From: a virus
Lineage: Duplodnaviria; Caudoviricetes
DNA: 64,000 nt
Direction: 5' to 3' (one strand)
Virus record (IMG/VR): IMGVR_UViG_2898597404_000001
Span: 1-64,000 of that record
The position numbers and the translations under genes are program-made. The notes beneath the pieces are model-generated. The model was given only the letters and a program-made list of their open reading frames with translations, was not told the origin of the DNA and ran no database searches. Of the stretch, positions 325 to 40,500 are shown in pieces; the first letter of the stretch is position 1, and every line of letters starts with the position of its first letter.

Positions 325-367
325 GTCGGGGTGGCGGGATTTGAACCCACGACCTCTTCGTCCCGAA
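325..367 (-). other. att core/attR: 3' half of tRNA-Pro(CGG)
   Basis: Reverse complement TTCGGGACGAAGAGGTCGTGGGTTCAAATCCCGCCACCCCGAC = anticodon loop, T-arm and acceptor 3' strand; 5' half absent; TGACCTGC-like arm motifs near 309, 408 and 451. Confidence 0.88.
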
Positions 368-1062: not shown

Positions 1063-1093
1063 AGAGAGCGCTCCCGTACCGGGGGCGCTCTCT
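1063..1093. terminator. Terminator hairpin between convergent units
   Basis: AGAGAGCGCTCCC-loop-GGGGGCGCTCTCT. Confidence 0.6.
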
Positions 1094-1103
1094 GCGTCTG
1101 GTG

Positions 1104-1195
1104 GTGCGGGTACGTAGCCCCCGCTCGGGGCGTGACGGTCCGGGCGGCGAGGAAGGCCCAGTTACCAGTCGCAGGTACGAGGCCCCTGCTCGGGC
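1104..1195 (-). repeat. Two copies of the 28-nt structured repeat downstream of the integrase
   Basis: Reverse complement of 1168-1195 = GCCCGAGCAGGGGCCTCGTACCTGCGAC; degenerate copy at 1104-1131. Confidence 0.8.
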
Positions 1196-1208
1196 GTGGC
1201 CTGGAGGA

Positions 1209-10335: not shown

Positions 10336-10351
10336 GGGCTGTGGCCCTGAT

Positions 10352-10522
10352 GCCCGCGCGGGGGCTTCGTACCCGCGACTTCCCGAAAGTCGACTCGCGC
10401 CCGCGCGGGGGCTTCGTGCCCGCGACGATCAGTTGGCCAGTGCAGTGCCCGCGCGGGGGCTTCGTACCCGCGACACCAGATGAGCACCTATCGCGCCTGA
10501 GCTGGGGCTTCGTACCGGCGGC
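10352..10522 (+). repeat. Mini-array: four copies of the 28-nt structured repeat
   Basis: Copies at 10352, 10399, 10447 and 10495 (GCCCGCGCGGGGGCTTCGTACCCGCGAC type). Confidence 0.9.
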
Positions 10523-10538
10523 ACCTGAACGGCTTCCG

Positions 10539-10599
10539 TCCCTGAATTTGGCCTCTCGCATTGACATAGGCACTGATATAGGCCAAACTTAGGGACATA
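10539..10599 (+). promoter_or_regulatory. Phage promoter/operator copy 2 plus upstream partial site
   Basis: TCCCTGAATTTGGCCT, then TTGACA-N17-CAAACT-TAGGGACATA. Confidence 0.8.
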
Positions 10600-13685: not shown

Positions 13686-14018
13686 ATGACCCGAAGGAAA
13701 CCCGTCCAGGAGGTGCCGGAGTGCGAGCGGTGCGGCCAGCGGATCGTCTGGGCCCTGACCCGGCGGGGCCGCTGGCAGCCGCTCGACCCGGAGCCGGACC
13801 CGGGCGGGAGCGTCCTGGCGTACCGGGACGCGCTCGGCGTGCTGCGCGCCCGCTCCCTGGCCTCGGCCGGGGACGGGCCGCGGCATCCGCTGGAGCGCGT
13901 CCACATGCCGCACGCGGCCACCTGCGGGGGGCCGCGTCAGGAAGAGCCGCCCTGGGACCCGGCGAGCGAGCCGGTGGCGTCCACGGGGCGGCGGCGACTT
14001 GGCGAAGGAGAACGATGA
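13686..14018 (+). CDS. Zn-finger hypothetical phage protein
   Basis: CERCGQRIVWA...PLDPEPDPGG...HMPHAATC; RBS GGAGG. Confidence 0.7.
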   Translation: MTRRKPVQEVPECERCGQRIVWALTRRGRWQPLDPEPDPGGSVLAYRDALGVLRARSLASAGDGPRHPLERVHMPHAATCGGPRQEEPPWDPASEPVASTGRRRLGEGER

Positions 14019-14500
14019 GGACCGGAAGACATGCCCAGCCCAGGAGCCGCGTACGCGGCATCGCCGCCGGGACGGCGGCGGCCGTGGCGGCGCTCGCCGT
14101 GGTGTGGGCGGTGAGCCCGGCGGACGGGTCGGGGGAGAAGGGCGGGCTGAGCGGTGCGCGCACCCCGGCCGGCTGCTGTACCGGGGAGCCGGGGGCGACG
14201 TCCTCGGCGGGGTCGGCCGGGGGCGCGTCGGGTTCCCCGAGAGGGGGCGCCGCGCCCGACTCGGTGAAGGGCAGCGGCGCGGCCCCCGCGCTCCCCTCGC
14301 TCCCCGCGCCCCGCAAGCGGGCGAGGAGGCAGCGGCCCGGCTCTGAGCGCAGCCCTGAGCGCAGTGCGCGGCGCACCTCGAGGAGCACCCCGCAGAGCAG
14401 CCCCGGCAGCCCGTCGGACCGCCCCGGTGAGAGCCGGTCCCCGGCACCGTCCGGCGGGTCCGGGTTCCCCCTGTTCCCCGGCATGGGACCGGCGTCGTGA
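14015..14500 (+). CDS. Hypothetical membrane/secreted protein
   Basis: GRHA motif, hydrophobic stretch, low-complexity tail; ATGA overlap. Confidence 0.5.
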   Translation: MRTGRHAQPRSRVRGIAAGTAAAVAALAVVWAVSPADGSGEKGGLSGARTPAGCCTGEPGATSSAGSAGGASGSPRGGAAPDSVKGSGAAPALPSLPAPRKRARRQRPGSERSPERSARRTSRSTPQSSPGSPSDRPGESRSPAPSGGSGFPLFPGMGPAS

Positions 14501-20092: not shown

Positions 20093-21280
20093 ATGCCACG
20101 ACACTACAAGCGCGACCGCGACCGCAAGCGCGGCCGCGAGCGCGGCGCGCAGCTCGACCTGTTCGCCGCACTCTCCGGGGACCAGCCCCCCACCCCGGCG
20201 GACCTCCCGCCCGACCCCGACCCCGATCAGAAGGAGATCACCCTCACCCCGGACAGCGTCCGCCCGCAGGACCCGCCACCCGCCACCGGCGGCGACGCGG
20301 ACGGCGGCCAGGCCCCGCCCCCGCCGTCGCCGAGGCCGGCCCCGCGAAAGGCGCCCGACTCCGGCCGCCTGCACCAGCTCGCCGAGCGCGTCAACGCGGC
20401 GTGGCACGACGCCCAGCGCGGCAACCGCCACCACCAGACCGCGTCCCATATCGAGATCCCCCTCGGCGTCGTCGCCGCGCTCACCCAGATCCGGCAGGCC
20501 GACCCGAAGGGCCCCGACCTGGCCGCACAGATCATCGACCTGGACGGGCCGGGGCTGCTGTCCATGTACCGGCAGATCTGGGCCATCCAGTGGATCACGA
20601 ACCCCTACCTGATCAACGCCGCCCGTCCGCTCGCGGAGTGGCTCGACGAGCCCGACGACCCCGACCCCGCCACCGTCGAGGCCGTCCGCCACGTCACCGC
20701 CACGGCGCTCCACGCGGGCCTGCTGGACTTCACCGGGAACCCGGACCCGCACTGGCGCTGCGAGACCGACGTGCTCGGCCGCGTCCTGGTCGAGCTGCGC
20801 TCCTCGGGCGCCAGCGCGAGCCTCGCCGAGATCCACACCCCGCAAGAGCTCGCCAACGCCATGGCCGCCCTGACGATGCCGGTCGACGAGCTGCTCGCGG
20901 CCGAGCTGGAGCGCGGGACCGGTCCCGGCGGCATCCACGACCCGGCGGCCGGGACCGGCGGGCTCCTCCGCGCCGCCGCGTGGGCGCTCCGCAACCAGGG
21001 CATCGAGCCCTCCCGCTTCGCGTGGGCCGCGACCGACATCGACCCGATCGCCGCCGCCTGCTGCGCGGTCAACGCCCTCGTGTGGGACCTCGGCCCGGAC
21101 GTCCTGGTCCACTGCGGCAACACCCTCACCGAGCCGGACGGCATCAAGCGGGAGCGGCTCCGCCGCAAGGAGATCTTCGCACTGCGGAGCGAGCTGATGG
21201 ACGGCGCGCGGATGCTCGCCGCCTACCGGCGGGCCATGTCCCTCCTGGAGGGCACTGTCAGCGGCCGAGACTGTCCCTGA
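20093..21280 (+). CDS. N6-adenine DNA methylase (HsdM)-like protein
   Basis: IHTP, IHDPAAGTGGLL, TDIDP, CGNTL; no NPPF/Y motif after motif I. Confidence 0.75.
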   Translation: MPRHYKRDRDRKRGRERGAQLDLFAALSGDQPPTPADLPPDPDPDQKEITLTPDSVRPQDPPPATGGDADGGQAPPPPSPRPAPRKAPDSGRLHQLAERVNAAWHDAQRGNRHHQTASHIEIPLGVVAALTQIRQADPKGPDLAAQIIDLDGPGLLSMYRQIWAIQWITNPYLINAARPLAEWLDEPDDPDPATVEAVRHVTATALHAGLLDFTGNPDPHWRCETDVLGRVLVELRSSGASASLAEIHTPQELANAMAALTMPVDELLAAELERGTGPGGIHDPAAGTGGLLRAAAWALRNQGIEPSRFAWAATDIDPIAAACCAVNALVWDLGPDVLVHCGNTLTEPDGIKRERLRRKEIFALRSELMDGARMLAAYRRAMSLLEGTVSGRDCP

Positions 21281-26201: not shown

Positions 26202-26690
26202 ATGGAGATCCCGCAGCGGCTCGCCCACCTGCCGGTCTGCCCCCGCAGGAACGTCCCCGTCCCCTACGCCAACATCACCACCGAGGACGGGCAGCACGAC
26301 TTCACCGCCCTCGACTCCGCCAAGGTCGTCCGCCTCGCCGCCGAACGCCGCTGCGGCATCTGCGAGGACACCCTGGACTACTGGATCGTGTTCCTCGGCG
26401 GCGAGCGCAGCGCCCAGAGCCGCGCCTACACGGACCCGCCGATGCACGAGGAGTGCGCACGGTTCGCGGCCCGAACCTGCCCCTACGTCACCCGCGCCCA
26501 CATGAGCCGCCGCAAGACGCCCCTCACCCCCGACACCACCGTCCCGAAGGGCTTCTCCGAGGACAAGCCCGCCGAGTTCCTCCTCTACTTCACCCGCAGC
26601 TACAAGCACCAGGTCACCCGCGACGGCGTCCTGTTCCGCCCCGCCCCCGCCGTCCGCCTCGAACGCTGCGGCTACAGCGCAGCCTCCTGA
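26202..26690 (+). CDS. Conserved actinophage Zn-binding hypothetical protein
   Basis: VPVPY...RRCGICEDTL...DPPMHEECARFAARTCPY. Confidence 0.75.
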   Translation: MEIPQRLAHLPVCPRRNVPVPYANITTEDGQHDFTALDSAKVVRLAAERRCGICEDTLDYWIVFLGGERSAQSRAYTDPPMHEECARFAARTCPYVTRAHMSRRKTPLTPDTTVPKGFSEDKPAEFLLYFTRSYKHQVTRDGVLFRPAPAVRLERCGYSAAS

Positions 26691-26710
26691 CCGAGAAAGG
26701 AACGGACCGA

Positions 26711-27280
26711 ATGACCGAGACCACCGAGACGACCGAGAAGCGGCGCGAATCCAGGCTGTCCCCCGCCGGGCTCGCCGCGCTGCTGGAGCTGGCCGCCGCC
26801 GAGATGGACCCCGACGCGATCACCGCGTTCGCCGAGACCGCCGCCCGCCTGGACGACCGCCACAGCATCAAGAACAAGTACGCCATCTGGGTCCAGTGCC
26901 CCGACGCCGTCCAGGTCTACGGCTACATGGAATGGCAGCAGCACGGCCGCCAGGTCCGCTACGGCCAGTCCGCCATCGGGATCTTCGCCCCCCTCACCCG
27001 CCGGACCGGCACCGAGGAGAAGGGAGGCGAGGACGCCAAGCGCACCCCCGAGGAGAAGGCAGGCAAGGACGAGAAGAGCCGCGAACGGGTCCTCCACGGC
27101 TTCAAGGTCGCCTGGGTCTACGACCTCTCCCAGACCAAGCCCCTCGACTGCCCATGCCCCCGGAAGGGCCCCTGCACCTGCCCGCCCCCCGAACCGCCCG
27201 CCCCGGCCGGCACCGCCCCGCCGACCGGAGACATACAGGACCTGCTCGACGCCCTGACCGAGGACCCGGACGACCAGTAG
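26711..27280 (+). CDS. ArdC-like N-terminal ssDNA-binding domain protein
   Basis: HSIKN.YAIWVQCPDA.QV.GY.EWQQHGRQVRYGQSAIGIFAP...VYDLSQT. Confidence 0.8.
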   Translation: MTETTETTEKRRESRLSPAGLAALLELAAAEMDPDAITAFAETAARLDDRHSIKNKYAIWVQCPDAVQVYGYMEWQQHGRQVRYGQSAIGIFAPLTRRTGTEEKGGEDAKRTPEEKAGKDEKSRERVLHGFKVAWVYDLSQTKPLDCPCPRKGPCTCPPPEPPAPAGTAPPTGDIQDLLDALTEDPDDQ

Positions 27281-27295
27281 CCTGCCGGTCCCGAC

Positions 27296-29077
27296 GCCCG
27301 AACGGGGGCCTCATGCCCGTGACGACAAGCCAGTCGATGCCACGCCCGCGCGGGGGCTTCGTGCCCGCGACGATCAGCAGCTCGGAGCAGCGCCCGTGCC
27401 GGGGCTTCGTACCGGCGACGCTCCATGCCTCCACGCCCGCGCCGGGGCTTCGTACCCGCGACCAGGCAGGTCTGTACCTCGTGCCCAAGCCGGGGCTTCG
27501 TACCCGCGACCACCGGCTCGCCGCCGCGACGCCCGCGCGGGGGCTTCGTACCCGCGACGCAGGAGGTCTGACCTCCACGCCCGAGCCGGGGCTTCGTACC
27601 GGTGACAACAGGTCGCCGACAGCCGAACGGGGGGCAGGGCCCGCAGCACACTGAGGCCCGCTATGCCCTGGAAGGGCCTCACGCAGCCGTGAGCGGCCCC
27701 CCGACGCACCCTCTGGGAGCAATAATGGGTCCACTCGGCGGGCTCCTCCGATGCCCGCGCCGGGGCCTCGTACCGGCGACGGCGCGCGAATGTGACCACG
27801 CCCGAGCGGAGGGCTTCGTACCCGCGATGGAGGGTCACCCCCGCCACGCCCGAGCCGGGGCCTCGTACCCGCGACAGACGCACCCCCGCCCGGCCACGCC
27901 CAAGCCGGGGCTTCGTACCGGCGGCCCGGAACTGGGAGCGACGCCCAAGCCGGGGCCTCATACCGGCGGCCCTGTAAGGGGAGCAGACGCCCAAGCCGGG
28001 GCCTCATACCGGCGGCCGATGAGCAGGGGTCCAAACGCCCAAGCCGGGGCTTCGTACCGGCGGCCCCAGAGAGAAGGCCGACGCCCGAGCCGGGGCCTCG
28101 TACCGGCGACTACGCGACGGAGTCACATGCCCGCGCCGGGGCCTCGTACCGGCGACCCGGTACCGGGGGAGCAGCGCCCGAGCCGGGGCTTCGTACCGGC
28201 GACCAAGTTCGAGACGACCGATGCCCGAGCCGGGGCCTCGTACCGGTGACTACGAGATCGAACCCCATGCCCGAGCCGGGGCTGCGTACCGGCGACTGTA
28301 GATGCCTCAGGACCATGCCCGCGCCGGGGCCTCGTACCGGCGACTACGGAGAGGGCGCCCCACGCCCGAGCCGGGGGCTTCGTGCCCGGCGGCAAGCCAT
28401 CGGACTCCTCCAGGCCCGAGCCGGGGCTTCGTACCGGTGATCAGCGGAAGCTGCTCGGCGCCCGCGCGGGGGCTTCATGCCCGCGACGTAGCAGGAACAG
28501 CCCACCCCAGCCCGGCGAGGGGAGCCCGAGTGGCCCTGGAAGGGCCTCACGCAGCCGTGAGCGGCCCCCCGGCGCACCCCGCAGGGGCTATAAGGGAACG
28601 CGGCGGTGTCACCAGGCCCGAGCCGGGGCTTCGTACCGGCGAACGAGCAACCGACTTTCCCCAACGCCCACGCAGGGGCCTCGTACCTGCGACGCGCAGA
28701 TGTAGCTGTCCACGCCCGAGCCGGGGCTTCGTACCGGCGACATCCACAACCTCCTGCGCTGCGCCCGAGCCGGGGCTTCGTACCGGCGACATGGCATGCA
28801 GACTCGTCACGCCCGAGCCGGGGCCTTGTACCGGCGACACACGACGACCACCCATGCCCGTGCCGGGGCCTCGTACCGGTGACACGGCGACGAGTCGTCC
28901 TCACGCCCGTGCCGGGGCCTTGTACCGGCGACATTGCCTGGATGATCGCTATGCCCGAGCCGGGGCCTCGTACCGGCGACTCAGCGCAAGGACCCGCGCC
29001 CGAGCCGGGGGCTTCGTACCCGGCGGCGGCCAACCGGCACTTCGGTCACGCCCGCGCAGCGGCTTCGTAGCTGCGAC
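27296..29077 (+). repeat. Non-coding array of 33 structured 28-nt repeats with 15-22-nt unique spacers
   Basis: Consensus GCCCGAGCCGGGGCYTCGTACCGGCGAC, period ~47 nt, blocks of 7, 16 and 10 separated by two related inserts. Confidence 0.95.
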
Positions 29078-29234
29078 CTCCGCAGCCCCGCCCCGAGCCC
29101 CGCCCGCTGGCCGGCAGCGGCGGGCCGGGGCGGGTCGTGCCGACGCGCGCCATACCGGCGAAGCGCGGTTCCGGGTGATTACGATCAGTGATATTGCCCC
29201 CGGGACCAGCACGAACTGCGAGGTGTGCCCCCCT

Positions 29235-30098
29235 ATGCCCGAGCCTGCGAGGTGGCTGCGGACGGCCGAAATCCCTCTCGCCGACCTCACCCCGTTCCCT
29301 GGGAACGCCCGCCGCGGCGACGTCCGCATGATCCTGGCCAGCCTCCAGCAGAACGCCCAGTACCGGTCCCTCGTGGTCCGCGACACCGGAGACGGCACCC
29401 TCACCGTCCTCACCGGCAACCAGACGTACGAGGCCCTGCAGCGGCACGGCCCCGACACCTGCGTCCGCGGCACCGCCGATGCCCCCGGCTGCGCGCTCTG
29501 CTCCGAAGGGAACTGGCTGGAGACGGCCCGCTGCGAGGTCATCACCTGCGACGACGAGACCGCCAAGCGCATCAACGTCGGCGACAACCGCATCCACGAC
29601 CTCGGCGGCTACGACGACAAGGCCCTGGCCAGCCTCCTGGAGGACCTTCCCGACCTCGGCGGCACCGGCTACAGCAGCGAGGACCTGGACGGCCTCCTGC
29701 GCGTGACCGGCACGCTCGGCCAGCAGGCCGCGGACTTCCTCACCCCGTTCAGGGACCAGACGATCCCGGCCCCCGGCCAGCCCGCCCCGGCCGGCACCGC
29801 CCCGCCGTCCGGACTGGCCCCGCTGCAACCCCGGGCCGGGGTCTCCCAGACCATGCAGCCGCCCCCGCAGGCCCCGTACGCGCCGCCCGAGCAGATCACC
29901 GCGCCGCACTCGTCCGCGACCGCCGACTCCCTCGTCCCGGTCCAGTGGACCGTCACCGTCGAGGAGCGGGACCGGATCCGCTCGACCCTCCGCGCGGCCG
30001 CCGAGCGGTTCGGCGCACCGGACGCCTCCACCGCCCTCGTCATGATCATCGACAGCTACGCGGCCACGCTCGCGACCGCCCCCGAGGAGACCCCCTGA
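29235..30098 (+). CDS. ParB/Srx N-terminal domain protein
   Basis: IPLADLTPFPGNARRGD...QYRSLVV...LTGNQTYEA...GDNR..DLGGYD. Confidence 0.8.
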   Translation: MPEPARWLRTAEIPLADLTPFPGNARRGDVRMILASLQQNAQYRSLVVRDTGDGTLTVLTGNQTYEALQRHGPDTCVRGTADAPGCALCSEGNWLETARCEVITCDDETAKRINVGDNRIHDLGGYDDKALASLLEDLPDLGGTGYSSEDLDGLLRVTGTLGQQAADFLTPFRDQTIPAPGQPAPAGTAPPSGLAPLQPRAGVSQTMQPPPQAPYAPPEQITAPHSSATADSLVPVQWTVTVEERDRIRSTLRAAAERFGAPDASTALVMIIDSYAATLATAPEETP

Positions 30099-30616
30099 TG
30101 TCCGCACTGCGCATCGTGTCCCTGCCCGCCGCCACCGCCGCCGTCCTCGATGGCGGGGTCGCGGTCCACGGAGCCCCCGCCAAGGGCCTCGGGCTCCACC
30201 TGTCCGGTGACGGGCACCTCGGCGCGGACATCATCCACGTCCCCGCAGGCGGCCAGTTCCCGGTCCACACCCACCCCGGCCACCACCTGCTGCTCTGCCT
30301 GGAGGGCCTCGGCACGATCACCGTCGACGAGGTCGTCCACCAGGTCCGCCCCGGCGACCTCTACATGGTGGACGGGCAGGTCCCGCACGCGGTCGGCGCG
30401 GGCGACCGGGACCACGTCCTCGTCGCGATCGGCGCACCGCACCGCCCGGTCGACTCACCCGACCGGATGACGTTCACGGACTGGGAGGGCACCCGTCTGG
30501 ACGAGCCGCTGTTCCCGCCCCCGGCCCCGGCGCGCAGCACCGGCCGCGGCTCCGGCAAGGGCCGCCACCGCGCCACCGGCCCCGCGACCGGCCCCGCGAC
30601 CGGCGCGGCGTCGTGA
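30098..30616 (+). CDS. Cupin-domain protein
   Basis: FPVHTHPGHH...GDLYMVDGQVPHAV. Confidence 0.85.
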   Translation: MSALRIVSLPAATAAVLDGGVAVHGAPAKGLGLHLSGDGHLGADIIHVPAGGQFPVHTHPGHHLLLCLEGLGTITVDEVVHQVRPGDLYMVDGQVPHAVGAGDRDHVLVAIGAPHRPVDSPDRMTFTDWEGTRLDEPLFPPPAPARSTGRGSGKGRHRATGPATGPATGAAS

Positions 30617-31728
30617 CCGTGCTGAACCTGGCGGAGCGCCGCTGGCCCCCGGTCCCGGACCTCGAGGAAACCCGCCTCATCACGCAGGCCGCCCTGTCCC
30701 GCACCTGGACAGACGGCCCGTGGACCGAAGAGGTCGAGCACCGCATGACCGAGCTGACCGGGGCCCCGCACGCGGTCGCGTTCAACTCCTGCACCTCCGC
30801 CCTCCACGCCGCCCTCCACGCCATGGGCTGCGCGGCCGGCACCCCCCTGCTCGCCCCCTCGCTCACGTTCACGGGCAGCCTCACCGGCGCCCGCCACATC
30901 GGCGCGGACGTCCACTGGCGCGACGTCGACCCCGACACCCTCACGATCACCCTCGGCCCGATCGAGGAGGTCGGGACCCTGGTCCTGGCCGTCGACCTCC
31001 ACGGCGTCCCCCACACCATCACCGGCGGGGGAGGCCTGCGGGTCCTCACTGACTCGTGCCAGGCGCTCGGCACCCTGCGGGACGGCCGCCACATCGGCGG
31101 CACGGGCACACACTGCTGGTCGTTCTCCTCGGCGAAACTCGTCGCCGCCCCGGACGGCGGCGCGGTCACCACCGACGACCCCGACCTCGCCCGCATCCTC
31201 CGCCAGCTCCGCGACTACGGCGTCTACGCCACCGGCCGGGAACGCTCCAACGGCGTCGTCACCCACCCCGGCGGCCACAACTGGCGGCCCTCCGAGCTGT
31301 CCATGGCCATGGTCGCGCACCGCCTCCAGCGGCTCCCGTACTGGGCCGACCGGGCCCGCCACGCAGCCCGCCGCCTCCACCCGGCCCTGGACCGCCTCGG
31401 CTACTGGCGGCAGCACGCCGCGCCCGGCACCGACCCCGCCTGGCACAAGATCCGCATCGGCCCCCCGGACCAGGACCCCGACGCCGCCCGCCAGCTCGCC
31501 CGCCGCCTCGCCGACGCCGGAGTCCCCACCCACCGCTGGGGCGCCCACCCCCTCCACCTCCACCCCGTCCACCACACCCGCGACCGGCCCCGGCCGGACC
31601 TGCCCGCCACCGCCCGCGCCGCCGCCGGGACCATCTGCCTCGGCACCGAACGGTGCCCCCCGATGACCTGGACCTGCGACGAGATCGACGAGGTCATCGA
31701 CACCCTCGACATCCTCACGGAAGGCTGA
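30613..31728 (+). CDS. DegT/DnrJ/EryC1/StrS PLP aminotransferase
   Basis: AFNSCTSALH, DSCQALG, SFSSAKL (PLP Lys), DGGAVTT, G.NWR. Confidence 0.88.
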   Translation: MTVLNLAERRWPPVPDLEETRLITQAALSRTWTDGPWTEEVEHRMTELTGAPHAVAFNSCTSALHAALHAMGCAAGTPLLAPSLTFTGSLTGARHIGADVHWRDVDPDTLTITLGPIEEVGTLVLAVDLHGVPHTITGGGGLRVLTDSCQALGTLRDGRHIGGTGTHCWSFSSAKLVAAPDGGAVTTDDPDLARILRQLRDYGVYATGRERSNGVVTHPGGHNWRPSELSMAMVAHRLQRLPYWADRARHAARRLHPALDRLGYWRQHAAPGTDPAWHKIRIGPPDQDPDAARQLARRLADAGVPTHRWGAHPLHLHPVHHTRDRPRPDLPATARAAAGTICLGTERCPPMTWTCDEIDEVIDTLDILTEG

Positions 31729-31738
31729 CCCCACCCCC

Positions 31739-32866
31739 ATGAACCCGCAGACCCCCCAGGACCGGAAGGTCCGCGTCGGCATCATCGGCGTCGGCAACTG
31801 CGCCCGCGCCCTCCTCGAAGGCATCGCCTTCTACCGCCACGACCCGGCCGCCACCGAGGGCCTCATGCACCCCCGCGTCGGCCCCTACACGGCCGGATCG
31901 GTCGAACCCGTCGCCGCCTGGGACGTCGACGCCGAGAAGGTCGGCAAGCCCCTCTGGGACGCCCGCGCCGCCGGTCAGAACCTGTCCGTCGGCATCCCGT
32001 GGAGCGACCTGCCCCCGGTCGGCGAGGACGTCACCGTGATGCGCGGCCCCACCCTCGACGGAGCCGGGACCCGCTACCGCGAGCGAATGGAGCTCGCCCC
32101 CGACTGGCCGAACTACGACGGCGCGGAGATCATCGAGCAGATCCGCGAATCCCGCGTCGACGTCCTCCTGAACTACCTCCCGGTCGGCTCCCAGCACGCC
32201 ACCGAGTGGTGGGCCCAGATCGCCCTCGACGCCGGATGCGCCTTCGTCAACAACATCCCCGTCTTCATCGCCCGCAAGGACTACTGGCGGGACCGGTTCC
32301 GGCAGGCCCGCCTTCCGCTCATCGGCGACGACATCAAGAGCCAGCTCGGCGCCACCTACCTGCACCGCATCATCGTGCAGGCCTTCGCGGACCGGGGCAT
32401 CACCCTCGACCGCACCTACCAGCTCAACGTCGGCGGCAACATGGACTTCTACAACATGCTGGAGGACGCCCGGCTGGCCTCCAAGCGCGAGTCCAAGTCG
32501 TCGGCCGTCACCGACGCCTACCCCCGCGAACTCGACCCCGCCAACGTCCACATCGGCCCCAGCGACCATGTCGCCTGGCTCGGCGACACCAAGAAGGCGT
32601 TCATCCGCTGCGAGGGCCGCGGCTTCGGCGGCGCACCGATCGAGCTGGACGTCACCCTCACCGTCCCCGACTCCCCGAACAGCGCAGGGGTCGTGATCGA
32701 CGCCGCCCGCATCGCCAAGCTCGCCCTCGACCGGCAGGACGCCGCAGCGGCGGACCATGTGTCCGCGTGGCTGTTCAAAGCGCCGCCGCGCGCCGTGGCG
32801 TCCATCCCGGACCAGACCGCGAAGGACCGCATCGGCGCCTGGCTCACCGGCGGCGAGGAGCGCTGA
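31739..32866 (+). CDS. ino1: myo-inositol-1-phosphate synthase
   Basis: GVGNCA, YLPVGS, GDDIKSQLGAT, TYQLNVGGNMDF, HIGPSD, DSPNSAG. Confidence 0.93.
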   Translation: MNPQTPQDRKVRVGIIGVGNCARALLEGIAFYRHDPAATEGLMHPRVGPYTAGSVEPVAAWDVDAEKVGKPLWDARAAGQNLSVGIPWSDLPPVGEDVTVMRGPTLDGAGTRYRERMELAPDWPNYDGAEIIEQIRESRVDVLLNYLPVGSQHATEWWAQIALDAGCAFVNNIPVFIARKDYWRDRFRQARLPLIGDDIKSQLGATYLHRIIVQAFADRGITLDRTYQLNVGGNMDFYNMLEDARLASKRESKSSAVTDAYPRELDPANVHIGPSDHVAWLGDTKKAFIRCEGRGFGGAPIELDVTLTVPDSPNSAGVVIDAARIAKLALDRQDAAAADHVSAWLFKAPPRAVASIPDQTAKDRIGAWLTGGEER

Positions 32867-32869
32867 CCG

Positions 32870-33613
32870 GTGCGCCCGCCCGCCACCCTCGCCGACCTGC
32901 CGGTGTACGCGATGAACCTGCCCCGGCGGACGGACCGGTGGGAGGCCCTCACCCGCCACATGGCGCTCCGGGGCCTCCCCGCACCGGTCCAGGTCCCCGC
33001 AGTGGACGGCCCCGCCGTCTTCACGCCCGCGGACCTCACCGGCTACCGCCGCGAGGTCGAGGCGGGCTTCGACGGCGACGCCGCCTGCTACGGCCAGGCC
33101 ACCACGGCGCTCAACCTGCTCACGTCCCTCGCCGAGGACCCCCCGGACTGGACCCTGATCCTGGAGGACGACGCGGTCTTCCACGAAGACGTCCACGCCC
33201 GCTACGCCGAGTTCGCCGCCCTCGTCCCCGACGACGCCCTGGTGGTGCTGCTCGGCTGCGTCCACAAGAGCATCAACCGCCGCTACCGCCCCGCACCGGG
33301 CAAGCCGCACCGGTCCTCGGCCCCGGTCGAGGGGACCGGGGAGCGGTGCTGGCGGGCCGGGACCGTGTGGTGCTGCCACGCCTTCATGGCGTCCCGCGAG
33401 GCCGTGCCGCTCCTCCTGGAGGCCGCGAAGCCCCGCGCCATGTCGTTCGATCTGGCGTGGAACGCCGTCCACCACCTCGGCCGCACCTACCTGCCGAACC
33501 CGCACCTGGCCATCCAGCGGCCCGGCGACTGGTCCGACATCCAGAACACCCGGCGCGGAGACCGCCCCGAGCAGTTCGCCCCCCGCGCCCAGCCCCGCCG
33601 GAGGCGCCCATGA
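32870..33613 (+). CDS. Glycosyltransferase family 25-like
   Basis: YAMNLPRRTDRW, PAVDG, LILEDDA. Confidence 0.8.
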   Translation: MRPPATLADLPVYAMNLPRRTDRWEALTRHMALRGLPAPVQVPAVDGPAVFTPADLTGYRREVEAGFDGDAACYGQATTALNLLTSLAEDPPDWTLILEDDAVFHEDVHARYAEFAALVPDDALVVLLGCVHKSINRRYRPAPGKPHRSSAPVEGTGERCWRAGTVWCCHAFMASREAVPLLLEAAKPRAMSFDLAWNAVHHLGRTYLPNPHLAIQRPGDWSDIQNTRRGDRPEQFAPRAQPRRRRP

Positions 33614-34284
33614 ACGTCCCGCCCTCCCTGACCGGGATCCCGTGCTGGGCGATCAACCTCGACCGCAGGCCGGACCGCTGGCAGCGCCTCACCGCCCACC
33701 TGCAGGACCGGGGCCTCCCCGCCCCGGCCCGCTGGCGCGCCATCGACGGCAGCACCACCGTCACCGCCGAGGAGGCCGGCGCATTCCGCGCCACGGCCGC
33801 ACCCTGCCGCGCCCACCCCGCACCCCGCCTCGCCACCGCCCGCACCTTCCTCGCCCTCACCGCCCACCTCCTCGACGACCCGCCCCCCTGGACCCTGGTC
33901 CTGGAGGACGACGCGGTCCTCCACGAACACGTCCACGCCCGCTACACGGAGTTCGCCGACGCCGCCCCCGACGACGCCCTCATGGTCCTCCTCGGCTGCA
34001 CCCACCGCCGCAAGCCCCGCCCCGTCCAAGGCACCTGCTGGCGCGTCACCCGCGCCGTCGACGCCCACGCCTTCCTCGCGTCCGCCGACGCCCTCCCCCT
34101 GCTGCACGCCGCGGCCGCACCGCTCACCACCGACTACGACCAGGCGTGGAACGACGTCCACCGCCTCGGACACACCTACGCGCCCATGCCGCACCTGGCC
34201 ATCCAGCGGCCCGACGACCACTCCGACCTGCTCGGCAGGCCCCGCCCGCTCCGCCGCAAGCACCTCGGCCTGGAGGCCACATGA
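33610..34284 (+). CDS. Glycosyltransferase family 25-like (paralog)
   Basis: WAINLDRRPDRW, RAIDG, LVLEDDA. Confidence 0.8.
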   Translation: MNVPPSLTGIPCWAINLDRRPDRWQRLTAHLQDRGLPAPARWRAIDGSTTVTAEEAGAFRATAAPCRAHPAPRLATARTFLALTAHLLDDPPPWTLVLEDDAVLHEHVHARYTEFADAAPDDALMVLLGCTHRRKPRPVQGTCWRVTRAVDAHAFLASADALPLLHAAAAPLTTDYDQAWNDVHRLGHTYAPMPHLAIQRPDDHSDLLGRPRPLRRKHLGLEAT

Positions 34285-35087
34285 ACCTCGTCCTCAAGTC
34301 CAAGGCGCACTACACCGACGACGCCGCCGCGAAGGTCTGGGCGAACATCACCGACCACGTCACCAAGGACGAGGCCGAGGAAGCCGTCGAACGCGCCGCC
34401 GCCGAGGTCCTCGACGTGTGCGGCCGCTACCTGGACCGCGTCGTCTACGGCTGGTCCGGAGGCAAGGACAGCCGCGCGCTCCAGGTGGTCATGGAGCGGG
34501 CCGGAGTGCGCCGCTCGCTGCTCGGCACGATCCCCCGCATGGAGTTCAGGGGCTATCTCGACTGGGTCGCACAGGAAGCCCCTGAAGGGCTCACCGTTAT
34601 CCCGAACGAGGACCTCGCCCTCGCCGATCTCGCGCACCCGGACCGCGACCGCTACCTGTTCCCCCGGACCTCCAGGGACGGCTACTGGTGGACCCTCAAC
34701 GGCACCCGCCGCGCGCAGCTCGCCTACCAGCAGGAGCACCACCCGGCCCTCCAGATCTACGGGCGCCGCCGCCAGGACGGCAACCCCACCGGCAAGGACG
34801 GCCTCCAGCACTCCCGCAACGGCATCACCTCCTACAGCCCGATCCGGAACTGGCCGCACGAACTCGTCCTCGCGGTCGTCCACTACGCGGGCCTCACCCT
34901 GCCCCCCACCTACGGGTGGCCCCACGGCTGGACCGCCGGGACCGGCCCCTGGCCCGGCCGCCGCGTCGGCACCCGCGACGAGTCGTGGGCCGAGACGTGG
35001 GCGATCGAGCCCGACCGGGTCCTGGAGGCCGCCGAGCACATCCCGTCCGCCCGCGAATGGCTCGACCGCCAGGAGGCCGCACGATGA
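34281..35087 (+). CDS. PAPS-reductase-family (PP-loop) protein
   Basis: WSGGKDS, GRRRQDGN, SPIRNW. Confidence 0.82.
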   Translation: MNLVLKSKAHYTDDAAAKVWANITDHVTKDEAEEAVERAAAEVLDVCGRYLDRVVYGWSGGKDSRALQVVMERAGVRRSLLGTIPRMEFRGYLDWVAQEAPEGLTVIPNEDLALADLAHPDRDRYLFPRTSRDGYWWTLNGTRRAQLAYQQEHHPALQIYGRRRQDGNPTGKDGLQHSRNGITSYSPIRNWPHELVLAVVHYAGLTLPPTYGWPHGWTAGTGPWPGRRVGTRDESWAETWAIEPDRVLEAAEHIPSAREWLDRQEAAR

Positions 35088-36394
35088 GCAAGATGGGGCA
35101 GCGGCAGTCCCTCGACCGCGTCACCGTCGACACCGACGTCTACACGCTCGCCTGCGAACGCACCGCCTACGTCCTCGACACCTTCGAGAAGGCGTTCGTC
35201 TGGTTCTCCGGCGGCAAGGACTCCACCGGGGTCCTGAACATCGCCCTGGAGGTGATCCACTCCGATCCCCGGTTCGAGCGGCACCTGCCGCTGCGCACGG
35301 TCTTCTACGACGAGGAGGCCATCCCCTACGAGACCGAGGAGTACGTGCGCCGCACCGCCCAGCGGCCCGACGTCGACCTGGAGTGGTACTGCCTCCCCGT
35401 CAAGCACCGCAACGCCTGCTCCCGCACCAGCCCCTACTGGTGGCCATGGGCGCCCGAAGCCGAGGAGAAGTGGTGCCGGCCGCTGCCCCCGGAGGCGATC
35501 ACCACCCTCCCAGGCTTCCCGATCAACCCTCCGGAGGCCCGCCTCACCGCCCCCGACGCGAACGGCCTCTTCTGCCCCGGCCGCGGCAACACGGCCATGC
35601 TCATGGGAATCCGCGCCCAGGAGTCACCGGTCCGCCGCAAAGCCGTCACCCGCCGCAAGGTCGACAACTACATCATCGGCTACAACGGCCCCACCAGCCG
35701 CGGCAACGCCTGGAAGGTGTACCCCCTCTACGACTGGCGCACCGAGGACGTCTGGACGGCGGCCGCGCTCAACGGCTGGGACTACAACCGGGCCTACGAC
35801 CGCATGGAGATGCTCGGCATCCCGCACTTCCAGCAGCGGTGCAGCCCCGCGTTCGGTGAGGAGCCCCTGACCAAGATCGGCATGTTCGCGGCGTGCTTCC
35901 CCGAGGTCTGGGAGAAGATGGCCGAACGCGTCCCCGGCATCGGCGCCGCCCACCGCTACGCCCTGACCGAGCTGTACGGCTACGGCTCCCGCCCCGCCAA
36001 GCCGGACGGCATCCCCTGGCCCGGCTTCATCGTCCACTACCTGCAGATGTTCCGGCCCGCCGAACAGGTCCACGTGAGCGGCCGCATCAACGAGACCATC
36101 CGCCGCCACTACAAGGTCACCACGCACCCGATCCTGCCCAAGTCCCGCCACCCGCAGACCGGCGTCTCCTGGGACTTCCTCCTCACGCTGGCGATGAGGG
36201 GCGACTTCAAAAAGCGCCGGCAGGAGATGAGCGCACTCGACCCCGACCAGAAGGCCCGCCAGTGGCGCGCCTACGCCTCCGAACTCGCCCGCGTCCTCGC
36301 CGCCGGGATCCCCCCCGAGGAACTCGGCCACCCCCGCGCCCTCCCCACCGACCCGCAGTCCGTGATCCCCGACGAGCACCGGGAGCCCCGATGA
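35084..36394 (+). CDS. IbrA-like PAPS-reductase/DUF3440 protein
   Basis: FSGGKDS, FYDEEA, WYCLP, GIRAQES..R, YPLYDW.TEDVW, YN..YD. Confidence 0.85.
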   Translation: MSKMGQRQSLDRVTVDTDVYTLACERTAYVLDTFEKAFVWFSGGKDSTGVLNIALEVIHSDPRFERHLPLRTVFYDEEAIPYETEEYVRRTAQRPDVDLEWYCLPVKHRNACSRTSPYWWPWAPEAEEKWCRPLPPEAITTLPGFPINPPEARLTAPDANGLFCPGRGNTAMLMGIRAQESPVRRKAVTRRKVDNYIIGYNGPTSRGNAWKVYPLYDWRTEDVWTAAALNGWDYNRAYDRMEMLGIPHFQQRCSPAFGEEPLTKIGMFAACFPEVWEKMAERVPGIGAAHRYALTELYGYGSRPAKPDGIPWPGFIVHYLQMFRPAEQVHVSGRINETIRRHYKVTTHPILPKSRHPQTGVSWDFLLTLAMRGDFKKRRQEMSALDPDQKARQWRAYASELARVLAAGIPPEELGHPRALPTDPQSVIPDEHREPR

Positions 36395-38379: not shown

Positions 38380-38443
38380 CCCGGACCGGCCCACGCGCCA
38401 ACCCACCACATGCCAACCCACCGCCCGCGAAGGAGGGGACCGG

Positions 38444-38887
38444 ATGGGGACGTCCCAAGCGAAACGCGCCGAAGTCGCGGCCCGCCGCAACAAGGCGATC
38501 CAGCTCCGCCTGGCCGGAGTCGACTGGGACACCATCGCCGAGCAGCTCGGCTACCGGGGCGGACGCGGAGCCGCCTGCAAGGACGTCGCACGGGCCCTGC
38601 AGGAGCGCCGCGCCGACCTCGACAAGACCGCCGAGGAACTCCGCGCCGTCGAGGTCGCCCGCCTCGACCGCCTCCAGGCCGCCGCGTGGGGCCTCGCCGT
38701 CCAAGGCGAACCCGCCTCCCTGAACGCCGTGCTCCGCATCATCGACCGCCGCATCCGGCTCCTCGGCCTGGACGCCCCGCGCCGCACCGAGGTCACCGTC
38801 CAGCAGATCGACTCCAGGGACGCGGAACTGATCGAGATGATCAACGAGGCCCGCGCCGGAGGCGAACCCGGCCCCGGCGGCGGCTGA
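38444..38887 (+). CDS. terS: Terminase small subunit
   Basis: RRNKAIQLRLAG.DWDTIAEQLGY HTH; RLLGLDAP; upstream of TerL. Confidence 0.8.
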   Translation: MGTSQAKRAEVAARRNKAIQLRLAGVDWDTIAEQLGYRGGRGAACKDVARALQERRADLDKTAEELRAVEVARLDRLQAAAWGLAVQGEPASLNAVLRIIDRRIRLLGLDAPRRTEVTVQQIDSRDAELIEMINEARAGGEPGPGGG

Positions 38888-40500
38888 TGGCGGCGGCCGC
38901 GCCCCCCGCCTTCACCGCGGCCGCCGACGCCGACACCTACCTGCGCGGCCCGGACGGCGAACCCCTCGTCGGCGAGACCTTCAGTCTGCGCGACCACCTG
39001 GCCCAGGTGCTCGCGGCCCTGCCCGCGTCCTGGCCAGCCGCCGACCGGGAGCTGGCCACCCCCGACGCCCGCCGCGTCGTCACCAGGTACGACCCGCTCC
39101 TGTTCGCCTACATCTACTGCCGCCACCTGCTCAAGGACGCCGAGGGCAACGTCACCTGGGCGGACACGCACCTGGAGTTCTGCCGCTACGCCCTCTCCTG
39201 GACCCGCCCCGCCGGCCTCCGCGAGCAGCGCCACGCCTTCGTCGCCCCCCGCGAGTCCGCCAAGTCCACGTGGCTGTTCAAGCTCCTGCCGCTCTGGGCC
39301 TCCGCCCACGGCCACATCGAGTTCATCGCCGCCTTCTCGTCCTCCGGCACACAGGCCCACACCCACCTCGCCGGATACCGGAACGAGATCGACAACAACC
39401 AGCTCCTCCGCACCGACTACCCGCTGCTCTGCTCACCCGGCCGCCGCCCGCGCGGAGCCGTCATCTCCGACTCCAGCGCGATGATGTACACCGCGTCCGG
39501 CTTCTCCTTCACCGCCCGCGGCCTGGACTCCTCGATCCTCGGCCTCGTCGACGTGCAGAACCGCCGCCCGCAGCTCCTCCTCCTCGACGACGTCGAGCCG
39601 GACGAGAGCAACTACTCGCTGTACCAGATGGGCAAACGCCGCACGACGATCATGGACACGATTTTGCCGATGAACGAGCGCGCCCACGTCGTCCTCGTCG
39701 GCACCGTCACCATGCCCGGCTCCGTCGTCCACCAGCTCGTCAAGACCGTCCTCGAACCCGACGCGGAAGAGCAGGCCGACTGGATCGCCGAGCAGAACTT
39801 CCAGTGCCACTACTTCCCGCCCCTCGCCCACCGCCCCGACGGCACCCGCCGCTCCATCTGGCCCGACAAATGGCCCGTCTCCTACCTGGAGGGCATCGAG
39901 CACACGCGGAGCTACCGAAAGAACTTCGCCAACGACCCCATGGCCCAGGACGGCGCCTACTGGAACGAGGACGACTTCACCTACAGCGATCCTCTCGCCA
40001 CCACTCGTAAGATCTTGAGCGTGGACGGTGCCGTCACCGACGACAGGTCCAGTGACTACACCGGTCTCGCAGTCGTCTCCTACAGCCCCACCGCCAAGCG
40101 GTGCTGGGTGGAACGTGCCAGCATGGTCAAACTCCTCGCCGAGGACCTGCGCCGCTACGTCCTCACCTGGCTCGAAGACGACCCCGAGATCCGCGGCGTC
40201 CTGGTCGAGACCAACCAGGGCGGCAAGATGTGGCTCGCGACCTTCCACCACTGCCCCGTCCCGGTGAAGACCGTCCACCAGAAGGCCCCCAAGCACGTCC
40301 GCGCCGCCTGGTCCCTGTCCCACTACCAGCGCGGCAAGGTCCACCACGCCGCACGCCTCCGCGACGCCGAGCACCAGATGATCGCCTACCCGCGCGGCGA
40401 ACACGACGACCTGGTCGACGCCATCGGAACCGGGGTCCTCCACTTCCTCGGCCGCCCAGCCCGCCGCAAGGCCGGAGTGCGCCTTGAGAGCCCCACCTGA
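38887..40500 (+). CDS. terL: Terminase large subunit
   Basis: APRESAKST, LLLLDDVE, SVDGA..SDYTG, ETNQGG, HDDLVDA. Confidence 0.92.
   Translation: MAAAAPPAFTAAADADTYLRGPDGEPLVGETFSLRDHLAQVLAALPASWPAADRELATPDARRVVTRYDPLLFAYIYCRHLLKDAEGNVTWADTHLEFCRYALSWTRPAGLREQRHAFVAPRESAKSTWLFKLLPLWASAHGHIEFIAAFSSSGTQAHTHLAGYRNEIDNNQLLRTDYPLLCSPGRRPRGAVISDSSAMMYTASGFSFTARGLDSSILGLVDVQNRRPQLLLLDDVEPDESNYSLYQMGKRRTTIMDTILPMNERAHVVLVGTVTMPGSVVHQLVKTVLEPDAEEQADWIAEQNFQCHYFPPLAHRPDGTRRSIWPDKWPVSYLEGIEHTRSYRKNFANDPMAQDGAYWNEDDFTYSDPLATTRKILSVDGAVTDDRSSDYTGLAVVSYSPTAKRCWVERASMVKLLAEDLRRYVLTWLEDDPEIRGVLVETNQGGKMWLATFHHCPVPVKTVHQKAPKHVRAAWSLSHYQRGKVHHAARLRDAEHQMIAYPRGEHDDLVDAIGTGVLHFLGRPARRKAGVRLESPT

Follow-up and report, generated by a model that had tools for sequence, protein, structure and literature searches.

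The array of 33 structured repeats at 27296-29077 is very probably one of four CRISPR arrays belonging to a prophage-borne type V-M (Cas12m) system. The assignment is based on the homology of both effector and crRNA scaffold, on synteny, on covariation within the repeats and on the confinement of the units to the prophage. Type V-M itself is already known; the compact, dispersed form of the arrays is a new variant. The initial annotation of the window (the whole 64,000-nucleotide stretch that was analysed) had described the array as Cas-less and its spacers as too short for CRISPR. Its observation that the window holds no cas gene is correct, but the label Cas-less is not, since a cas12m gene lies elsewhere in the prophage, directly 5' of a sister array. 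The objection to the spacer length falls away with a Cas12m heteroduplex of ~17 bp, as given in the available text of PMC10442227 and bioRxiv 10.64898/2026.03.26.714355. The annotation had itself stated that matching a known CRISPR family would refute its proposal, and with this match the claim of a categorically new system falls.

Organisation and covariation of the array

A fuzzy scan of both strands of the window with a 28-nt consensus, allowing up to 7 errors, produced 40 matches on the + strand: 33 that tile 27296-29077, four at 10352-10522 and three weak ones (5-7 errors) at 2346, 34952 and 37758. The - strand gave five matches, of which two are credible (1168-1195 and 1104-1131) and three weak. 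The scan confirms the 33 structured ~28-nt units first reported for this region, and all of the stem variants and mismatched copies listed for them were recovered in place. The period, originally put at ~47, was measured as a start-to-start distance of 43-52 nt with a mode of 48 nt (11 of 32 intervals); two longer intervals, of 174 and 156 nt, both contain conserved inserts. In 30 of the 32 intervals the variable stretch between units spans 15-23 nt. As the unit reaches ~4 nt further 5' into a semi-conserved Y-S-R-Y, the truly variable part comes to ~15-16 nt. A repeat protein can be excluded at the array because the period is irregular and not a multiple of 3. In the whole genome GGGGCYTCRTRCC occurs 57 times compared to 6 for the reversed control, far above chance, and the three stray matches to this motif outside contig C28 are not units. 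The array and its immediate surroundings are laid out as follows.

26453..27280, + strand: upstream ORF with weak ArdC-N / anti-restriction similarity
27292..27606, + strand: sub-array A2a, 7 predicted crRNA units (~32-nt scaffold + ~16-nt guide)
27607..27748, + strand: insert 1, leader-like block, ~75 nt of which form a conserved core
27749..28487, + strand: sub-array A2b, 16 predicted crRNA units
28488..28611, + strand: insert 2, second leader-like block, with TATAAG ~21 nt ahead of the next unit
28612..29077, + strand: sub-array A2c, 10 predicted crRNA units, the final guide coming after 29077
29078..29143, + strand: long G+C-rich hairpin after the last array unit

Sub-array A2a begins 11 nt past the stop codon of the upstream ORF, with which it is probably co-transcribed. 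The ArdC-like character ascribed to this ORF holds up as a weak similarity (Pfam ArdcN at E 0.0017, below the cut-off; PHROG 'anti-restriction protein' at 8.2e-5). Downstream, the proposed ParB-led modification operon does contain modification-type genes according to Pfam (DegT aminotransferase, Inos-1-P synthase-like and PAPS reductase), but its ParB does not stand: Pfam gives only Cupin_2 and AraC_binding for 29225-30616, and the first 332 aa of that product have no Pfam match at E <= 1. Insert 1 can be aligned to insert 2 and to the block ahead of the main part of array A3, the sister array at cas12m. It features the A/T-rich hexamer AATAAT ~26 nt ahead of the next unit and is a possible internal promoter; a promoter scan of the leader-like inserts found no consensus sigma-70 site, and the fold z-score of insert 1 (-0.53) is not significant. 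The hairpin at the end of the array folds with -52.7 kcal/mol (z-score -1.57, 18 of 200 shuffles folding equally well) and might, at best tentatively, be regarded as a terminator without a U-tract.

Covariation was analysed over an alignment of 72 units (70 distinct), whose stems vary and whose columns average 73% identity. Standard pairs occupy 98.2% of the 560 pair cells compared to 91.5 +/- 0.7% in shuffles, with both-side changes in four of the eight pairs (30 cells), and none of 500 shuffles attained any of the observed covariation measures. Pairing falls to 31-51% when the 3' partner is slid by 1-3 columns. In the suggested pseudoknot helix between the 5' GCC and the loop GGC, a fold already published for Cas12m crRNA, 100% of cells pair, among them one compensatory U-A; the stem is paired in 97.1% of cells and the consensus 3' end is GAC. 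Mismatches affect 10 of the 560 pair cells overall and, by the initial list, the stems of three of the 33 array units. The retention of 98.2% of pair cells via compensatory changes points to purifying selection on the fold, in agreement with the selection on structure that had been proposed for the array. As the folding energies of single units and inserts do not differ from those of shuffles, the structural case rests on covariation. Rfam returned no match at the gathering score over the whole window and none at E <= 1 in 27000-29400.

In published Cas12m structures, G(-28)-C(-26) pairs with G(-15)-C(-17) and the stem closes at -3/-4; the published scaffold carries A(-2) and C(-1) at its 3' end, the 5' 7 nt of the repeat are disordered, the optimal heteroduplex is 17 bp long and the mature crRNA comprises ~33 + 17 nt (available portions of PMC10442227 and bioRxiv 10.64898/2026.03.26.714355). 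All of these features fit the unit, which likewise combines a stem with a pseudoknot and ends in A(-2)C(-1). The unit (28-32 nt) is the counterpart of the pseudoknot scaffold published for Cas12m crRNA, and spacers of 15-20 nt fit the 17-bp heteroduplex. A 'processed guide' was among the options that the initial annotation had considered.

A Cas12m gene and sister arrays in the same prophage

The window belongs to a prophage of 83.4 kb (G000:C28:13223-96661) that is inserted in tRNA-Pro, consistent with the phage origin first assigned to the element. In a covariance-model search of the 9.6-Mb genome, for which 150 first-look candidates were scored, all 71 matches (E <= 0.01) lie within the prophage, at four sites. 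Together with the array at 27296-29077, the following features are relevant.

325..367, strand not applicable: attL, 43-bp direct repeat shared identically with attR, where it forms the end of tRNA-Pro(CGG)
1080..1199, - strand: two units directly 3' of the integrase stop codon (1209)
10348..10542, + strand: mini-array A1, 4 units and the last guide
C28, 12 nt past the cas12m stop codon, + strand: array A3, 33 units

The left prophage boundary is attL, and attR lies at C28:96619-96661. The two integrase-linked units correspond to the covariance-model matches C28:14066-14097 and 14001-14033 on the - strand, and the integrase itself matches phrog_1 (7.4e-30). Mini-array A1 begins 12 nt past the stop codon of ORF 9709-10335 (phrog_11955, function not known), so that three arrays begin 11-12 nt past a stop codon. 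The units number ~72 in total and lie up to ~80 kb from the cas12m gene. Spacing is held tightly at 43-52 nt across 66 units. With heterogeneous repeats, 15-23-nt spacers and no Cas1, the arrays depart from canonical adaptive arrays, which have near-identical repeats, spacers of a fixed length of ~26 nt or longer and a cas1-cas2 module; a search of the genome (97.7% complete) for Cas1 (PF01867) came back empty, and the control matched in 7 of 14 genomes. Type V-M systems normally lack adaptation genes (available text of PMC11013384). The repeats are far more heterogeneous than those of arrays renewed by adaptation and some stems carry mismatches, so some units may be dead.

The cas12m gene was found by tblastn of the host's own genome with a Cas12m-like protein of a jumbo phage (match at C28:93778-94797), the only other match being a weak TnpB-like one on C25 (E 2.8e-4). 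It occupies G000:C28:92308-94821 on the + strand (window-equivalent 79410-81923), ~15 kb beyond the end of the window and ~50 kb downstream of the array, and its intact ORF encodes 837 aa. The protein is homologous to characterised Cas12m effectors, whose domain order is WED-REC-RuvC-TNB. In phmmer searches of the PDB it matched GoCas12m (8pm4, 1.6e-48), Cas12m2 (8hio/8hhl, 1.7-1.8e-45) and 23vw (3.5e-32). An AlphaFold model (pLDDT 77.8) used in Foldseek likewise gave 8hhl at 1.7e-31 (TM target 0.60) and 8pm4 at 2.1e-30, with the next family, Cas12f/TnpB, at ~1e-6. The motifs ALHIGWR, VAVDAWD and DQD align to H317, D485 and D579 of Cas12m2 as an H-D-D triad. Both the HR pair, which in Cas12m2 reads C(-1) according to the account of residue roles in the accessible part of PMC10442227, and the cysteines of the TNB zinc ribbon (C795, C812, C815) show no variation among the 8 aligned sequences. 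An effector with an H-D-D triad does not cut DNA, as reported in the same portion of PMC10442227, and we infer that this Cas12m homologue binds DNA without cleaving it. Its ~285 extra residues (196-481), which form two insertions with no match in Pfam or the Atlas, mean that its activity could differ from that of the Cas12m proteins studied so far.

Array A3 adjoins the effector gene on the matching strand, as in type V-M loci. The array at 27296-29077 lies ~50 kb from the gene and is not adjacent to it; its coupling to the effector is therefore deduced from the common scaffold.

Relatives, guides and alternative readings

Similar units accompany cas12m genes in other elements. The jumbo phage G001 (IMG/VR) contains a canonical array with 36-nt repeats and ~36-nt spacers directly 3' of a Cas12m-like ORF (Pfam Cas12f1-like_TNB, 2e-8), and the 3' 28 nt of its repeat are nearly identical to the prophage unit. 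G037 encodes an HDD cas12m with 53% identity and has 12 irregularly spaced, degenerate units downstream of the gene; in the IMG/VR contig G002, 8 units, some at 48-59-nt periods, flank an HDD cas12m of 35-38% identity on both sides. Megablast of 26400-30700 found nothing in the phage and plasmid collections. The exact repeat pattern retrieved 34 loci with a single match each from the genome contig collection, among which only three (L036, L013 and L011) reached E <= 0.01 with the covariance model, as solitary units. In metagenome contigs it retrieved 29 loci; four of the 27 outside G002 had one covariance-model match each and none had an array. A search of viral contigs with the effector yielded 7 pattern matches, 0 of them confirmed.

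A rival account accepts the Cas12m system and takes the ~72 guides to be a fixed regulon that represses host or prophage promoters, as a set of programmable transcription factors comparable to TldR or other dead-nuclease regulators, instead of serving defence. We regard this as unlikely, for all that it would suit an H-D-D effector unable to cut DNA (accessible text of PMC10442227), a genome without Cas1, repeats that evolve slowly with compensatory changes, as expected of old fixed guides, and arrays placed behind genes of different operons. It would also accommodate three near-matches (15-16 nt) to intergenic host DNA whose 5' flanks are T-rich (C10:150717, C19:172658 and C11:652498); four host near-matches with T-rich flanks were selected post hoc and are not significant. 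The target searches speak against it. Exact guide matches in the own genome (blastn-short) numbered 74, 24 and 5 at >=15, >=16 and >=17 nt, compared to 39, 6 and 2 for reversed and 21-26, 6-9 and 0-2 for shuffled guides, and 19 of the 24 matches of at least 16 nt stem from two G+C-rich guides. No protospacers were found in the own genome, the prophage or the elements of relatives. Anchored PAM-proximal seeds in the prophage occur at chance level (k=12, 1 real compared to 1.7 shuffled), as do those in G037, G002 and G001, and the slight excess in the host at k=15 (9 real compared to 1-6) is largely due to two G+C-rich guides. A match of a G037 guide in the prophage was judged to be chance, as it extends no further than 13 nt and its flank reads GCG. 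A fixed regulon further predicts conserved guides, and the prophage has none in common with G037, G002 or G001.

It is considerably less likely again that the arrays are decaying, non-functional relics of a once canonical CRISPR locus. Heterogeneous repeats, a few mismatched or truncated units, the irregular and degenerate units of G037 and the missing adaptation module would agree with decay, but the compensatory preservation of 98.2% of pair cells, the 43-52-nt spacing over 66 units, the intact cas12m ORF and the conserved H-D-D triad, HR pair and zinc-ribbon cysteines do not.

Least probable of all is a Cas-independent RNA or ssDNA element (a sponge, decoy, type III antitoxin-like RNA or RNA anti-CRISPR titrating a foreign Cas12m), because the cas-free window, the conserved structure and the absence of an Rfam match are set against a cognate effector in the same prophage, a sister array just past the stop codon of that effector, a matching scaffold in the canonical Cas12m array of G001, the want of a ToxN-like gene 3' of the array and variable spacers of exactly functional guide length. 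None of the readings entertained initially as a type III antitoxin, a sponge, a decoy or an ssDNA signal found support. A ToxI-like antitoxin was rejected on account of the unique spacers between the units and the downstream genes (cupin, aminotransferase etc.), and a solitary-repeat RNA anti-CRISPR (Racr), a repeat mimic directed at a host Cas protein from an element without the effector, on account of the cognate effector encoded by the prophage.

Proposed mechanism and comparison with known systems

For the favoured reading as arrays of a Cas12m system, we propose that transcription of the integrase gene, an early gene, the ArdC-like gene and cas12m runs on into the arrays as 3' extensions, with the leader-like inserts providing further transcription starts. 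Cas12m or a host RNase would cleave the transcripts to ~72 crRNAs, each ~47-48-nt unit being essentially one mature crRNA, in which a scaffold of ~28-32 nt (5' GCC/loop GGC pseudoknot, 5-6-bp stem, 3' AC) would be followed by a guide of ~15-20 nt. The Cas12m-crRNA complex may then bind PAM-flanked dsDNA without cutting it and block transcription or replication, the most likely targets being competing phages or plasmids and, less likely, host or prophage genes. A more far-reaching version, which is possible yet doubtful, would have a temperate actinophage carry a Cas1-independent, nuclease-dead Cas12m with ~72 'pre-trimmed' crRNAs in the 3' ends of operons, that of the integrase included, and deploy different guide sets in lysogeny and lytic growth; duplication and divergence, not adaptation, would enlarge the arrays, which would silence multiple targets among rivals or host genes.

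An apparent orphan RNA array is hereby turned into an interpretable system, and its compact form is one that escapes the usual detection settings. CRISPR finders that demand spacers of 25 nt or more, such as MinCED with the minimum spacer length of 25 given in the available text of a landfill-virome study (10.1101/2024.05.30.596742), leave such arrays invisible. If the units are functional, a scaffold of ~30 nt with a guide of ~16 nt would mark how small a Cas12m crRNA gene can be in nature, and ~70 guides would serve a binding-only effector in a prophage without adaptation machinery, which raises the question of how such arrays acquire guides. Designers of compact CRISPRi tools may take an interest in the long Cas12m variant, which has two additional domains, and in the multiplex array that naturally accompanies it.

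Among known systems, ToxI consists of contiguous near-identical repeats without variable spacers ahead of a ToxN endoribonuclease gene. Tandem pseudoknot-forming units processed into monomers would be the point of analogy; spacer-free repeats and a ToxN gene are both absent here. TldR and other nuclease-dead TnpB-derived repressors have a dead RuvC and short guides, are linked to prophages and act by binding, features that the present system appears to share, but they use a single long guide RNA and not a multi-unit repeat-spacer array as found here.

V-M arrays with short spacers or scaffold-only repeats are not described in the available parts of the Cas12m literature; they may be catalogued by Wu et al. 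2022 (Mol Cell), the paper that established V-M. V-M systems are 'also encoded by some prophages' (review PMC11656645, in the accessible text). Virus- and plasmid-borne V-M systems (PMC11656645; myxophage MV-1, bioRxiv 10.64898/2026.09.14.751636; G001), as far as these sources describe them, resemble ours in a Cas12m encoded on a mobile element without cas1/cas2 and in a presumed role in competition between elements. The triad is D-E-D in both MV-1 and G001, each of which has just one canonical array (with 8 spacers in the former and a 36/36 layout in the latter), in contrast to the H-D-D triad and four compact arrays of the prophage. GoCas12m (PDB 8PM4; PMC11013384) is the best sequence match of the effector (E 1.6e-48). 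GoCas12m and PmCas12m use no tracrRNA and have a crRNA of 50-60 nt made up of a ~30-33-nt scaffold and a ~17-nt guide (available text of PMC11013384 and bioRxiv 10.64898/2026.03.26.714355), the size of one genomic unit here; whereas they trim a longer repeat-spacer to this mature size, the genomic unit of the prophage already has it.

Cas12m2 of Mycolicibacterium mucogenicum (8HHL/8HHM/8HIO; PMC10442227, in the portion accessible) is similar in effector sequence and fold, in the H-D-D triad and the HR pair, in a pseudoknotted scaffold ending in AC, in a heteroduplex of ~17 bp and in the absence of adaptation genes. It differs in the length of the effector, 596 aa compared to 837 aa with two insertions within 196-481 in the prophage, and in that of the genomic repeat, which measures 36 nt in Cas12m2 and is reduced to the ordered scaffold of 28-32 nt here, where heterogeneous repeats and 15-23-nt spacers make up ~72 units at four prophage sites.

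Structure of the repeat unit and its likeness to a crRNA

In the array at 27296-29077 (+), a 28-nt unit (consensus GCCCGAGCCGGGGCTTCGTACCGGCGAC) is repeated 33 times, with variable stretches of 15-23 nt in between. Unit starts recur every 43-52 nt, most commonly 48 nt, apart from two longer intervals (174 and 156 nt) that each contain a related insert. Because the four bases 5' of GCC are semi-conserved (Y-S-R-Y), a unit length closer to 32 nt is more accurate, which leaves some 15-16 nt genuinely free to vary. A reading of the array as a protein-coding repeat is ruled out by the irregular period. The stem variants and mismatched copies listed in the initial annotation were all recovered.

Covariation was analysed in 72 aligned units (70 distinct rows) over the 5-bp stem and the GCC/GGC pseudoknot helix. 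Paired combinations fill 98.2% of 560 cells compared with 91.5 +/- 0.7% in shuffled alignments, both sides change in four of the eight pairs (30 cells), and none of 500 shuffles equalled the observed value of any measure. Sliding the 3' partner out of register by 1-3 columns lowers pairing to 31-51% of cells. The most variable stem pair is C-G in 40, G-C in 20, A-U in four and U-G in two of the distinct rows; the pseudoknot helix has no unpaired row and shows a single compensatory U-A. By folding energy alone, the units did no better than shuffles.

In the 36-nt repeat of Cas12m2, the 5'-most 7 nt are described as disordered and the remainder as a stem and pseudoknot with a non-canonical pair involving A(-2) at the end, followed by C(-1) (PMC10442227). 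The mature crRNA of PmCas12m is reported to consist of a ~33-nt repeat and a ~17-nt guide, with G(-28)-C(-26) pairing with G(-15)-C(-17) (bioRxiv 10.64898/2026.03.26.714355). Numbered from its 3' end, our unit places GCC at -28 to -26 and GGC at -17 to -15 as in PmCas12m, pairs stem positions -22 to -18 with -8 to -4, and terminates in (G)AC. The agreement of these positions indicates that the genomic unit of ~47-48 nt would in essence be a single mature crRNA that needs no trimming. The spacers had seemed too short for CRISPR because the genomic unit is already of mature crRNA size; this objection falls away, as the Cas12m2 guide is reported to pair with its target over only 17 bp (PMC10442227).

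A Cas12m effector encoded by the same prophage

A scan of IMG/VR with the unit core led to a complete 210-kb jumbo phage with terminal repeats (G001), which carries an array of 36-nt repeats and ~36-nt spacers; the 3' 28 nt of its repeat are almost identical to the window unit. Directly 5' of this array lies an ORF of 677 aa in which Pfam detects a Cas12f1-like TNB domain (2e-8) and which also matches the TnpB family; the 3' end of the ORF as called overlaps the array. At this locus (L038:8917-11275), the Cas12m-like ORF has a D-E-D triad and is followed by 5-6 canonical 36-nt repeats with the same scaffold; one more unit, degenerate in sequence, falls within the end of the called ORF (L038:9382-9413). 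Searched against the window's own genome, the 677-aa protein matched contig C28 at 93778-94797 (E 1.7e-7), within an 837-aa ORF at C28:92308-94821 (+). The Cas-less reading proposed from the window thus does not hold: this ORF, a Cas12m, belongs to the same prophage, ~15 kb past the window end.

The 837-aa ORF matches solved Cas12m proteins (8pm4, 1.6e-48; 8hio/8hhl, ~1.8e-45; 23vw, 3.5e-32). Its AlphaFold model (mean pLDDT 77.8) likewise matches 8hhl (1.7e-31) and 8pm4 (2.1e-30), with Cas12f and TnpB trailing by ~25 orders of magnitude. Cas12m2 H317, D485 and D579 align with H (ALHIGWR), D (VAVDAWD) and D (DQD) of this ORF, a triad described as binding one Mg2+ and as incapable of target DNA cleavage (PMC10442227), and the His-Arg pair that reads crRNA C(-1) is invariant in an eight-sequence alignment. 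The protein exceeds the Cas12m proteins studied so far by ~240 aa. Two insertions inside residues 196-481, predicted to be beta-rich and helical, are absent from solved Cas12m proteins and common to two homologues of 829-836 aa, source-named Actinomadura (63% and 52-53% identity); neither matched Pfam, PHROG or Atlas. The helical insertion has a winged-helix-like look in the model.

The window corresponds to C28:12899-76898 of a 9.6-Mb genome with 72% G+C. An 83.4-kb prophage encloses the array, its ends marked by a 43-bp direct repeat (C28:13223-13265 and 96619-96661) whose right copy forms the end of a tRNA-Pro(CGG) gene. Portal, capsid and a tape-measure-like protein of 1252 aa are also encoded.

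Units and genes of the prophage (window coordinates unless stated)
1104-1195 (-): 2 units, directly 3' of the integrase stop codon
1209-2858 (-): integrase (phrog_1, 7.4e-30)
10352-10522 (+): 4 units, 12 nt 3' of the stop of ORF 9709-10335
20093-21280, 10625-12106 (+): N6-DNA-methylase-like protein and UvrD-type helicase (Pfam 9.8e-6, methylase; 1.6e-15, helicase)
27296-29077 (+): 33 units, 11 nt 3' of the stop of ORF 26453-27280
within 29225-36394 (+): cupin-domain protein (Pfam)
within 29225-36394 (+): DegT/DnrJ/EryC1 aminotransferase (2.5e-54)
within 29225-36394 (+): Inos-1-P-synthase-like protein (1.6e-31)
within 29225-36394 (+): two proteins without family
within 29225-36394 (+): PAPS-reductase/DUF3440 protein (PHROG 3.9e-76)
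38410-40500: large terminase (phrog_38, 1.6e-60)
beyond the window (+): 33 units (array A3), from 12 nt 3' of the cas12m stop to the attR-side prophage end

The operon-like run at 29225-36394 (+), directly 3' of the array, resembles a phage module for DNA or sugar modification; it had been described as ParB-led, and Pfam finds no ParB domain in the genes 3' of the array. The upstream ORF 26453-27280, annotated as ArdC-like, does show ArdC-N/anti-restriction similarity, although it is weak.

Both large arrays have related leader-like inserts (27607-27748, 28488-28611 and C28:94920-95010) ahead of their main blocks. The two window copies have a common core, GCCCTGGAAGGGCCTCACGCAGCCGTGAGCGGCCCCCC, and an A/T-rich hexamer lies 18-26 nt 5' of the next unit in the blocks of both arrays. 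The inserts may act as promoters or processing signals, or may be left over from array duplication; a promoter consensus scan of these blocks found no site.

Distribution of units and effectors

A covariance model of the unit, with 150 first-look candidates scored, gave 71 matches at E <= 0.01 across the 9.6-Mb genome, all at C28:14001-96511, inside the prophage. Three stray core-motif matches elsewhere in the genome are not units. A search of the genome for a Cas1 gene found none, a situation reported as usual for type V-M (PMC11013384).

Cas12m matches occur in two of 103 other genomes of a genus sample (G037, 1.3e-262; G074, 9.2e-16) and, at E <= 1e-10, in one of 400 other genomes of an order-wide sample. 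Within 1.6 kb 3' of its gene, G037 has 12 model matches, irregularly spaced and with very diverse stems that are still paired. The 39-kb IMG/VR contig G002 encodes an H-D-D Cas12m of ~600 aa (35-38% identity), with a total of eight model matches distributed over both sides of the gene, some with periods of 48-59 nt, which add further compensatory stems. In actinobacterial phage-like elements, H-D-D effectors are thus repeatedly accompanied by compact or dispersed units; the jumbo phage, with its D-E-D triad, retains a canonical array. Solitary high-scoring units, away from any array within 8 kb around, were seen in two genomes titled Actinomadura (L036:7728-7759 (-), 49.9 bits; L013:3040-3071 (-), 45.2 bits).

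Guide targets and relation to known type V-M systems

Cas12m is reported to silence plasmids and phages by binding (PMC11013384, PMC10442227), and we infer that the prophage Cas12m would silence competing elements. Guides showed no match enrichment against the prophage itself or its relatives (G037, G002, G001), and none is shared between relatives and prophage. Matches to the host chromosome are not convincingly enriched either. A regulon, with host promoters repressed through the guides, is a less likely alternative. Over their PAM-proximal 15-16 nt, three guides match intergenic sites of the host (C10:150717, C19:172658 and C11:652498), each with T-rich sequence on its 5' side (TTT, TTT and GTT); these matches are not significant against shuffles. 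Two A3 guides (C28:95883-95902 and 96178-96196) are near-duplicates (19/20 nt), and several other guide pairs have common 9-10-nt cores, a pattern that could stem from variants of a single target or from array growth by duplication.

The kind of system is already known, namely type V-M. A September 2026 preprint describes the Cas12m of a myxophage as the first from any phage (10.64898/2026.09.14.751636), and a review already mentions prophages for V-M (PMC11656645). Within the Cas12m/V-M literature passages searched, four features appear new: the scaffold-only repeat with a guide-length spacer; the dispersal of ~72 units in four arrays over a prophage, directly 3' of stop codons (at a distance of 11-12 nt in the three + strand arrays); the strongly diverged yet compensated repeats; and the long form of the Cas12m effector.
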